Positions 45,001-48,000 of a DNA stretch of 64,000 nt are shown here, piece after piece (within the stretch, counting starts at the first letter, position 1; each line of letters begins with the position of its first letter). Where the stretch lies: NCBI RefSeq assembly GCF_013167455.1, contig NZ_CP038328.1, one strand, 5' to 3'. This DNA is from Escherichia coli O157:H7 (lineage in GTDB: Bacteria > Pseudomonadota > Gammaproteobacteria > Enterobacterales > Enterobacteriaceae). Position numbers: made by a program.

Positions 45001-48000
45001 GAATTTGCCAATATGATCCGCGATCTCGATCAGGAGTGTGGTTCAACCTGCGCGGCGGATTTCCGCGATCGCTTAGGCGTAGGCCGAAAGCTGGCAATTC
45101 AGATTCTGGAATATTTTGACCGCATTGGCTTTACGCGTCGTCGTGGAAATGATCATTTATTGCGCGACGCATTATTATTTCCGGAAAAATAAGGAAATGA
45201 TTAATTAATTTTTAAAATAAATTAATACAAATTTCTTATGATTTTAAAAAAGCACATTGTTTAATGAATACAATGTGCTTTTTATTAGATTAATTTTGAT
45301 AATTAATAATAATGATCATGTTTTCGAATGAAAATCCTCAGTAAGCTGCCCACCCTTTTTTACACTTTCAGGAGTGTGTTATGGCATCTTCAACTTTCTT
45401 TATTCCTTCTGTGAATGTCATCGGCGCTGATTCATTGACTGATGCAATGAATATGATGGCAGATTATGGATTTACCCGTACCTTAATTGTCACTGACAGT
45501 ATGTTAACGAAATTAGGTATGGCGGGCGATGTGCAAAAAGCACTGGAAGAACGCAATATTTTTAGCGTTATTTATGATGGCACCCAACCTAACCCCACCA
45601 CGGAAAACGTCGCCGCAGGTTTGAAATTACTTAAAGAGAATAATTGCGATAGCGTGATCTCCTTAGGCGGTGGTTCTCCACACGACTGCGCAAAAGGTAT
45701 TGCGCTGGTGGCAGCCAATGGCGGCGATATTCGCGATTACGAAGGCGTTGACCGCTCTGCAAAACCGCAGCTGCCGATGATCGCCATCAATACCACGGCG
45801 GGTACGGCCTCTGAAATGACCCGTTTCTGCATCATCACTGACGAAGCGCGTCATATCAAAATGGCGATTGTTGATAAACATGTCACTCCGCTGCTTTCTG
45901 TCAATGACTCCTCTCTGATGATTGGTATGCCGAAGTCACTGACCGCCGCAACGGGTATGGATGCCTTAACGCACGCTATCGAAGCGTATGTTTCTATTGC
46001 CGCCACGCCGATCACTGACGCTTGTGCACTGAAAGCCGTGACCATGATTGCCGAAAACCTGCCGTTAGCCGTTGAAGATGGCAGTAATGCGAAAGCGCGT
46101 GAAGCAATGGCTTATGCCCAGTTCCTCGCCGGTATGGCGTTCAATAATGCTTCTCTGGGTTATGTTCATGCGATGGCGCACCAGCTGGGCGGTTTCTACA
46201 ACCTGCCACACGGTGTATGTAACGCCGTTCTGCTGCCGCATGTTCAGGTATTCAACAGCAAAGTCGCCGCTGCACGTCTGCGTGACTGTGCCGCTGCAAT
46301 GGGCGTGAACGTGACAGGTAAAAACGACGCGGAAGGTGCTGAAGCCTGCATTAACGCCATCCGTGAACTGGCGAAGAAAGTGGATATCCCGGCAGGCCTA
46401 CGCGACCTGAACGTGAAAGAAGAAGATTTCGCGGTTCTGGCGGCTAATGCCCTGAAAGATGCCTGTGGCTTTACTAACCCGATCCAGGCAACTCACGAAG
46501 AAATTGTGGCGATTTATCGCGCAGCGATGTAATCATCATTTCCACAACGGCTGGCAAATTGTCAGCCATTTTTTCAACTATCTCAAAACTTGCTTTTTTT
46601 GAGATAGTTTCTCTTTCCTGCTATACACTATCTCAATATTGCGCTTTTTTGAGATAAGCAAATGGCTATCAAATCACCTCCCACGCTGATTCCTTTATCA
46701 CACTTATCGGGTGAGGAACTCCAGGCCCACCTGCGCTTTAACCGGGTTACCGATGAAAAAGGACGTTATCTGCCTTTTGATGAGTTGCAGTACCGCATCA
46801 AAAAAGGAGAAAACGTCGATGTGGCGTGGACGCTTACCCGTCTGGCGCGCAACGCGGCGATCCAACGAATTAATTATTGCAATGAAGCGGGTGAACAGGC
46901 CGGATTCAACATTACCCCGGTGATTGCAGAAGCGTGCGAGCTTGTCGACAAACGTGCTACCGCGCTGGCGCTGAAAGATCAGACTGAACGGTTACGCGGG
47001 GCCGGAGCCGAGTTAAGCCAGTTACGCCTGGAAGAGCCGATCACCAGCTCCCAGCTGGAAGGTGCGAATACTACAACGCTGGTGGCGAGAAAAATGCTGG
47101 AAACAGGACGGTCGCCACGCACTGAAGACGAGCATATGATTGCGGGAAATGCCCGGCTGATGGCGGAAATTCCGCACTTACTCGCAGAACCGCTGACACC
47201 TGCGCTTATTCGCCAGTTACATGCCATTGGTATGGGTGGAATCAATGACGCGAAATATCGTCCGGGAGAATTTCGTGAAACAGATGATGTTGTGATCGCC
47301 GACTATGATGGCAATATAGTGCATCAACCGCCCGCTGCGGCATTGTTACCGGAACGGCTGGAAAAAGTTTGCCAGTGGTTAAACAGCCATGAAGGGTATA
47401 TTCATCCGTTGGTCCGTGCCTGCATTCTGCATTTTATGCTGGCCCATGAACATCCGTTTCGGGATGGCAACGGGCGCACCAGTCGGGCGCTGTTTTACTG
47501 GTATATGCTGAAATCGGGCTACGATGTCTTTAAATATATTTCCATCAGCCGTTTGCTTCATGCTGCACCGGTCAAATATGCCGCCAGCTACCAGTACACT
47601 GAATCAGATGGTATGGATCTGACTTATTTCCTTGAATATCAGGCGGGTGTCATTAAACGTGCTCTGCAAAACTGGCAGCAGCATATCGATGAAATTACAC
47701 AACGAAGCGCAAAACTCGATAGTGTGCTGTTTAGCTCTGGTGTGCTTAAACGCCTGAATCCGCGCCAGGTAACGCTCCTGAATGTGATGCTCGCCAATCC
47801 GGGGAAAGAGTACACAGTTGCTGAAATTAGCGCGAGCCTGGGCGTCTCTGATAATACGGTTCGAGCTGATTTACGGACAATTGTTAAAGAAGGGTTTGCG
47901 CAAGAGAAGAAAATTAATGACCAGCAAGCCGTGTACTTCGCGCATTATCCGCTGTAACCCTTGCCCGTAAATTCGTGATAGCCGTCGAAAAGCTGTTACC

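Follow-up and report, generated by a model that had tools for sequence, protein, structure and literature searches.

What is the gene that separates yiaY from aldB in Escherichia coli O157:H7, and how did these two genes come to lie side by side in E. coli K-12? We examined this question in a stretch of 64,000 nucleotides from contig NZ_CP038328.1 (assembly GCF_013167455.1), hereafter the window, in which an open reading frame (ORF) of 431 aa, designated fic here, runs from ATG to TAA at 46662-47957 (plus strand). It is flanked by yiaY (45381-46532) and aldB (ATG at 48065, end at 49603), with selA-selB upstream of the yiaY-fic-aldB stretch, and the identical gene is labeled 'Fic family protein' in RefSeq (WP_000985752.1). 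We consider, with a probability of approximately 0.6, that fic is a stand-alone, self-contained cassette which encodes a class II, intramolecularly inhibited Fic enzyme with a winged helix-turn-helix (wHTH) at its C terminus, belonging to the group of SoFic (SO_4266/MloA, Shewanella oneidensis), and which represses its own transcription, was ancestral at this site, and was later deleted from many strains. The parts of the gene to which the text refers are given below; CccR and EcSofic are Fic proteins of Yersinia pseudotuberculosis and E. coli H397, respectively.

46662-47957, plus strand: fic-family gene for a class II Fic of 431 aa, SoFic-like, with a wHTH at the C terminus (ORF, Pfam, PADLOC hidden Markov model (HMM), AlphaFold2 (AF2), Foldseek, and the ratio of nonsynonymous to synonymous divergence, dN/dS)
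46662-46946, plus strand: N-terminal domain, aa 1-95, subfamily-specific and absent from SoFic, CccR, and EcSofic
47046-47063, plus strand: inhibitory-helix motif SSQLEG, aa 129-134, with Glu133, at the end of helix 101-132 (regular expression, alignment of 37 homologs, alignment to FICD and EcSofic)
47190-47504, plus strand: Fic core, aa 177-281 (Pfam), with the catalytic motif at 47451-47486
47742-47954, plus strand: C-terminal winged-helix region (AF2 secondary structure, weak Pfam HTH matches, SoFic-like_C matches in homologs)

Regarding the active site, the sequence HPFRDGNGRTSR at aa 264-275 conforms to the Fic/Fido pattern HxFx(D/E)GNGRxxR and lies within the match to Pfam Fic (PF02661, aa 177-281, E=1.7e-19). 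SSQLEG, which is located N-terminal to the Fic core on the same polypeptide, fits (S/T)xxxE(G/N), the inhibitory pattern of class II proteins. In an alignment of 37 homologs with 41-75% identity, the residues H264, F266, D268, G269, N270, G271, R272, and R275 were invariant (pattern H-P-F-x-D-G-N-G-R-x-x-R), as were the stretch ITSSQLEGA in 37/37 and positions in the N-terminal 95 residues (D31, GRY at 34-36, R45, W56, and R63), and conserved positions were also found in the winged-helix region (N398, T399, and A400). E133 aligned with the Glu of the inhibitory motif in both FICD and EcSofic, E133-G134 falling on the EG of the FICD motif and E133 on the SSRIEN of EcSofic. The absence of any variation in the catalytic residues and in the inhibitory Glu argues that enzymatic activity has been maintained.

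The confident AF2 model (predicted local distance difference test, pLDDT, 89.5; predicted template modeling score, pTM, 0.84) consisted of an N-terminal domain of helices and a beta-hairpin (aa 1-98), a 32-residue helix (101-132) carrying the inhibitory motif at its end, the core Fic domain, a long helix (321-359) as a connection, and a C-terminal unit in the order helix-helix-helix-strand-strand (helices 367-378, 386-393, and 397-409; strands 413-417 and 423-427). Several Pfam helix-turn-helix (HTH) families, with HTH_DeoR, HTH_11, and HTH_5 as examples, matched this C-terminal domain weakly (aa 361-414), and matches to SoFic-like_C (PF21248) were found in homologs of the protein. In Foldseek searches of the PDB, SoFic ranked first (3zcn/3eqx/3zec; TM-score 0.60-0.72 over approximately 350 columns at 17-18% identity), followed at lower ranks by CbFic2 (8cil), Dde_2494 (4rgl), 7xux, and FICD; by sequence, the best PDB matches were FICD and other Fic proteins at approximately 1e-12. 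The PADLOC model for SoFic, a single-gene system, matched aa 96-428 (PDLC03963, E=2.4e-43). A fold match in the PDB was also sought for the N-terminal domain (aa 1-95), and none was found. As judged from sequence and model, fic encodes a Fic protein of class II in which the catalytic and inhibitory residues are intact and the C terminus carries a wHTH. An earlier note on this DNA, which was made from the sequence alone, had read the ORF between yiaY and aldB as a Fic protein with a canonical active-site motif and a class II inhibitory motif, and these readings held; the domain architecture proposed there was recovered in the full-length Foldseek alignments to SoFic, CbFic2, and 7xux and in the AF2 model, although the winged helix, put at about 90 residues, occupies about 70. 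The PADLOC recognition as 'SoFic', the extra N-terminal domain, and the two conserved operators described below go beyond that note.

The region directly upstream of fic contains the following elements.

46576-46609, no strand assigned: operator-like palindrome O1, AACTATCTCAAAA-N8-TTTTGAGATAGTT, with the core TATCTCAA-N12-TTGAGATA at 46579-46606
46627-46656, no strand assigned: operator-like palindrome O2, with the same core at 46629-46656, ending 5 nt before the fic ATG
46622-46629, plus strand: putative -10-like element picked out by eye, TATACA (46622-46627) or TACACT (46624-46629), 17 nt after TTGAGA, between O1 and O2 and abutting O2
46549-46567, plus strand: terminator-like hairpin GGCTGGCAAATTGTCAGCC followed by a T-run after yiaY, a consensus match that sets yiaY apart from the fic promoter

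O1 and O2 are two 30-nt direct repeats, each of which is palindromic, 50 bp apart and immediately 5' of fic, and their core occurs exactly twice in the window against an expectation of 0.01. The right arm of O1 includes TTGAGA (46599-46604), a near-consensus -35 hexamer. The pair overlaps the putative promoter of its own gene, as the inverted repeat of CccR does. The same two palindromes with different spacers accompany homologs of 70-76% identity in Pseudescherichia, Salmonella, and Pantoea, and the pair was also found with variable spacers beside more remote homologs from Marinomonas, Alteromonadales, Pseudomonas, and Leptolyngbya, some of these remote homologs having symmetric half-site variants (TCACCTCAA...TTGAGGTGA or TTTTTCAA...TTGAAAAA). 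When the upstream regions of 10 taxa were aligned, the columns without variation were those of all four half-sites and of the TA in the -10-like element, and a relaxed form of the motif was present upstream of 30/74 fic loci but in only 14/4106 control windows. Such a footprint is classic for a pair of autoregulatory operators that moves together with its gene. Since the palindromes are conserved in unrelated contexts from Enterobacterales to cyanobacteria, autorepression is implied, as has been shown for CccR and suggested for SoFic.

The strong conservation of the operators would also be expected if the protein were primarily a transcription factor, the wHTH of which governed a regulon beyond its own promoter, while the Fic domain served in nucleotide sensing or self-modification rather than as a toxin. 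The reported switching of CbFic2 activity by DNA binding and the long vertical retention of fic under purifying selection at a housekeeping locus, described below, are both in line with this idea. However, the only two operator matches in the window lie at the promoter of fic itself, and the complete invariance of the catalytic residues and inhibitory Glu argues for a maintained enzymatic activity; we consider this explanation unlikely, while keeping it in view.

The second part of the question concerns the state of the locus in other strains. The region 46400-48100 was compared by megablast with 5426 complete E. coli genomes, and the locus was found in 5357. The allele with fic was present in 1572 of the 5426 (approximately 29%), a K-12-type scar in 3204, and a scar that retains O1 in 576. 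K-12 itself has yiaY and aldB adjacent, as the earlier note had stated, the region between them being 164 nt long and lacking fic. Its junction reads ...CAACTATCTC joined directly to TGTAACCC..., and the allele retains the left arm of O1 and the last 5 nt of fic (TGTAA).

46585-47952, no strand assigned: segment of 1368 bp absent from K-12-type genomes, with the junction between TATCTC (left arm of O1) and TATCCGC (end of fic)

In a second empty allele (strains EC42405 and 4069), the spacer is 200 nt and contains the whole of O1 followed by ...TTATCTC joined to TGTAA; the K-12 allele equals this 200-nt allele minus the 36 nt between two TATCTC repeats. Both types of empty site thus retain pieces of the fic promoter/operator region together with the fic stop codon. 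Outside E. coli, Escherichia albertii NBRC 107761 has fic and aldB in the same arrangement, with 92% nucleotide identity over 3042 nt; the synonymous divergence (dS) from this species was 0.33 for fic, with a dN/dS of 0.069, and 0.40 for aldB.

The earlier note had described fic as a strain-variable insertion, and the variability stands, whereas the insertion does not. A recent horizontal insertion into a K-12-like yiaY-aldB spacer would be consistent with the absence of fic from K-12 and approximately 70% of E. coli, and with the occurrence of relatives in many unrelated contexts, plasmids, ICE-like (integrative and conjugative element-like) regions, and prophage-like contigs, which indicates that the cassette is mobile over long timescales. 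Nevertheless, the empty sites hold parts of the cassette (an arm or the whole of O1, the TATCTC remnant, and the fic stop codon), the arrangement in E. albertii is the same with a synonymous divergence similar to that of aldB, the G+C content of fic (approximately 0.47-0.56) is in the range of the flanking coding sequence, and the junctions showed no integrase, insertion sequence element, or target duplication in the form of direct repeats, all of which makes a recent insertion very improbable and largely refutes it. Since the palindromes are part of the fic cassette in unrelated genera, they cannot have been in place beforehand as a target, and the empty sites must be scars of deletion; together with the relics in the empty alleles, the E. 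albertii synteny with its aldB-like dS therefore indicates that fic is the ancestral state and that the variation arose by deletion. We conclude from these sequence comparisons that fic, a gene under purifying selection, was ancestrally present in E. coli plus E. albertii and was lost by short-repeat deletion in approximately 70% of sequenced E. coli. The cassette would already have resided between yiaY and aldB in the common ancestor of the two species, and later deletions between short repeats (TATCTC/TATCCGC) would have left the operator relics.

These relics differ slightly between strains. In EC42405 (L089 1633-1832), O1 shows a symmetric double change relative to the fic-positive allele, from CTATCTC...GAGATAG to CTCTCTC...GAGAGAG, while strain 4069 (L090 5920-6119) has a change in the right arm only. 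The double change could reflect selection on the hairpin, which is terminator-like and followed by a T-run, or self-correction of the palindrome. More doubtfully, the O1 hairpin relic in fic-less alleles may have been kept as a terminator of yiaY or as an upstream element of aldB. Truncated or fused versions of the protein were also seen among the database matches (P0099, P0007, P0080, P0002, and P0075), examples being a 503-aa product in which the C-terminus of Fic is fused to a domain of aldehyde dehydrogenase, and partial forms of 343-374 aa. They suggest that the fic locus is occasionally affected by frameshifts, partial deletions, or breaks in the assembly.

Regarding the extent of the functional unit, the homolog of Pseudescherichia adjoins nasR, that of Salmonella lies inside an AcaB/DUF3158/DUF3577 ICE-like element, and that of Pantoea adjoins a glutathione S-transferase (GST) gene with an AbiEi gene nearby; no neighbor common to these three contexts was seen. 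Relatives with approximately 40% identity are carried on plasmids of Klebsiella, Aeromonas, and Vibrio, and others with 36-41% identity on predicted viral or prophage contigs, often at contig ends, while the INPHARED phage genomes yielded no full-length homologue and only partial matches of 22-36% identity in Gram-positive phages and fecal contigs. Across the fic loci compared, no conserved adjacent small partner ORF was present, which, together with the inhibitory motif in cis, differs from the class I arrangement of FicT/FicA. Since no neighboring gene recurs across contexts, the unit consists of a single gene and its operators. As a candidate for an antitoxin resembling AS1, the small protein encoded downstream of EcSofic, a 50-aa ORF at 47818-47970 that overlaps the 3' end of fic was considered and rejected as spurious because it is interrupted by stops in E. 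albertii, Pseudescherichia, and Salmonella.

The same survey of contexts bears on the idea that the protein is secreted as an interbacterial toxin in the manner of CccR, for example as a Type VI secretion system (T6SS) effector that AMPylates the FtsZ of competitors. The overall architecture and the logic of autorepression are those of CccR, but no secretion-system genes adjoin fic in any context examined, the protein contains neither a signal nor an adaptor domain of the PAAR/VgrG type, its N-terminal domain being without a match, and its similarity to 7xux, the structure of a Fic domain that came out when the CccR paper did, is low (18% identity); we regard secretion as very improbable. That fic is a decaying remnant, functionless even in the strains that keep it, is hardly credible, since repeated or widespread loss and truncated or fused variants (P0002, P0075, and P0099) in the protein database are set against a dN/dS of 0.07, intact motifs and operators, and the full length of the protein in a cluster that comprises 1771 member sequences.

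Returning to the autorepressed, self-inhibited Fic cassette, we propose the following mode of action. By analogy with characterized Fic proteins carrying an HTH, the protein would dimerize and its C-terminal winged helices would bind O1 and O2. Considering the conserved cis-elements together with CccR and SoFic, occupation of these sites, which overlap the -35 and the -10/+1 regions of the gene's own promoter, would keep expression low by autorepression. The Fic domain, restrained by Glu133 of the SSQLEG helix, would AMPylate, and perhaps also deAMPylate, a hydroxyl of Thr, Ser, or Tyr in an abundant essential bacterial protein, EF-Tu and FtsZ being candidate targets by analogy. Relief of the inhibition may then lead to growth arrest, following the logic of a conditional toxin or of abortive infection, and a role in phage defense is possible on the model of related systems. 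The 95-aa N-terminal domain is, speculatively, a candidate sensor or target-docking module. A bolder version, which we find quite doubtful, holds that the 430-aa subfamily is a distinct SoFic-type branch in which the N-terminal domain senses a phage or stress cue and couples the release of Glu133 inhibition to derepression at O1/O2, and that the operator relics are not inert in those E. coli that lack fic, K-12 among them.

Several observations weigh against this proposal. The NCBIfam equivalog for SoFic (NF046030) scored 39.9 bits, far below its curated cutoff of 550, and the identity to any characterized relative is only 17-26%; therefore, the target and activity of the characterized relatives are not transferable, and the fic protein is a member of a distant paralogous subfamily, not a SoFic orthologue. 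The promoter hexamers are weak, a consensus promoter scan did not call a fic promoter, and a literature search for a Fic protein with yiaY and aldB found no paper. In E. coli, fic sits among housekeeping genes instead of in a defense island and is vertically inherited under purifying selection, which is as much in keeping with a physiological regulator as with a defense gene, and the loss in 70% of E. coli indicates that the gene is dispensable.

Around the locus, the gap between fic and aldB is only 107 nt. The aldB ORF call extends upstream to a GTG at 47975 (542 aa), while RefSeq places the start at the ATG at 48065, with AAGGAG in front of it, and the extension (47975-48064) is probably not translated. 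Approximately 45-60 nt 5' of this ATG, a perfect palindrome with an 8-bp stem, CTGGCGAAGATTTCGCCAG, is located at 48003-48021; it is conserved in K-12 as well as in E. albertii, has no T-run after it, and may be a regulatory site for aldB. Stretches of low G+C content (0.33-0.39) were noted at 45000-45600 between selB and yiaY and at 49800-50400 between aldB and yiaW, the latter spacer being 514 nt long and containing a small annotated hypothetical gene in K-12. In strain 4069, the region 3' of aldB (L090 7927-8539), where yiaW is located in K-12 and the window, contains a HicA/HicB toxin-antitoxin pair and a gene pair for GH127 and a major facilitator superfamily (MFS) protein, and the HicA/HicB region is a second variable spot beside the fic locus.

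In terms of significance, fic is an uncharacterized member of a recognized SoFic-like kind of Fic-wHTH protein, annotated in RefSeq and matched by a defense-system model, and the present analysis adds to this the definition of the operators, an N-terminal domain that is an orphan by fold, and the recognition of the K-12 yiaY-aldB spacer as a deletion scar, which bears on how the upstream regulatory sequence of aldB is read. Approximately 29% of the complete E. coli genomes searched, including strains labeled O157:H7 and uropathogenic E. coli (UPEC), carry a predicted autoinhibited AMPylase that is absent from K-12. A survey of the PADLOC type would presumably count it as 'SoFic' by HMM, despite an identity of approximately 26% to the H397 construct. 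The candidate operator in two copies, obtained from comparative data, and the natural knockout background of K-12 provide experimental handles. These findings do not overturn the current understanding of Fic proteins.

Among known systems, FICD/HYPE gives the best PDB sequence matches over the inhibitory helix and Fic core, with the EG aligned, but differs in its TPR (tetratricopeptide) repeats, lack of a wHTH, location in the endoplasmic reticulum, and target, BiP. CbFic2 of Coxiella burnetii, which is reported to switch between AMPylase and deAMPylase on DNA binding (PMC10628234), shares the combination of Fic and a C-terminal HTH and is a structural match (8cil); unlike what is proposed here, it is an effector that is directed at eukaryotes and acts on histone H3, and the identity is 20-21%. 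EcSofic comes from the same species and architecture class, the PADLOC model for SoFic captures both proteins, and E133/E70 and H264/H194 align. It is toxic in a dimer-dependent manner and countered by the 47-aa downstream protein AS1, and Sofic is described as protecting against phage (PMC12249575); in the supplementary table of Millman et al. (2022), the E. coli H397 SoFic construct tested by these authors is marked 'v' and that of KTE165 'x'. However, EcSofic is a protein of 358 aa with only 26% identity over 227 aa, no AS1-like ORF accompanies the window gene, and the upstream repeats are unlike. In that table, the 5' DNA of the H397 construct has several tandem repeats of approximately 90 nt with ATGTGTCGAT...TTTTTTAAACATGT elements, which suggests that operators are arrayed in repeats in the H397 subfamily too, though of a different kind.

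CccR, a class II Fic protein with a C-terminal HTH, represses its own promoter through AGATAATCAT-N26-ATGATAATCT at the -35/-10 boxes, requires dimerization for DNA binding, and AMPylates FtsZ at Thr8 (PMC9755527). The domain plan and the inverted repeat at its own promoter, predicted for the window gene, are alike, whereas CccR uses one inverted repeat with a 26-bp spacer and the window gene has two palindromes of 28 bp that lie 50 bp apart and have 12-bp spacers; moreover, CccR is a T6SS-secreted effector, while the contexts of fic examined are without adjacent secretion genes. SoFic shares class II inhibition and the order of an N-terminal helix leading into the inhibitory helix, the Fic core, and a C-terminal wHTH. 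Its dimers bind the first 100 bp 5' of its own gene, and it AMPylates and deAMPylates switch I of EF-Tu, by which translation is inhibited (bioRxiv 10.64898/2026.07.09.737422). The window protein is approximately 60 aa longer, carries the extra 95-aa N-terminal domain, and shows the 17-18% identity noted above in structural alignment, and its putative operators are defined by comparative sequence, whereas the binding of SoFic is placed within the first 100 bp.

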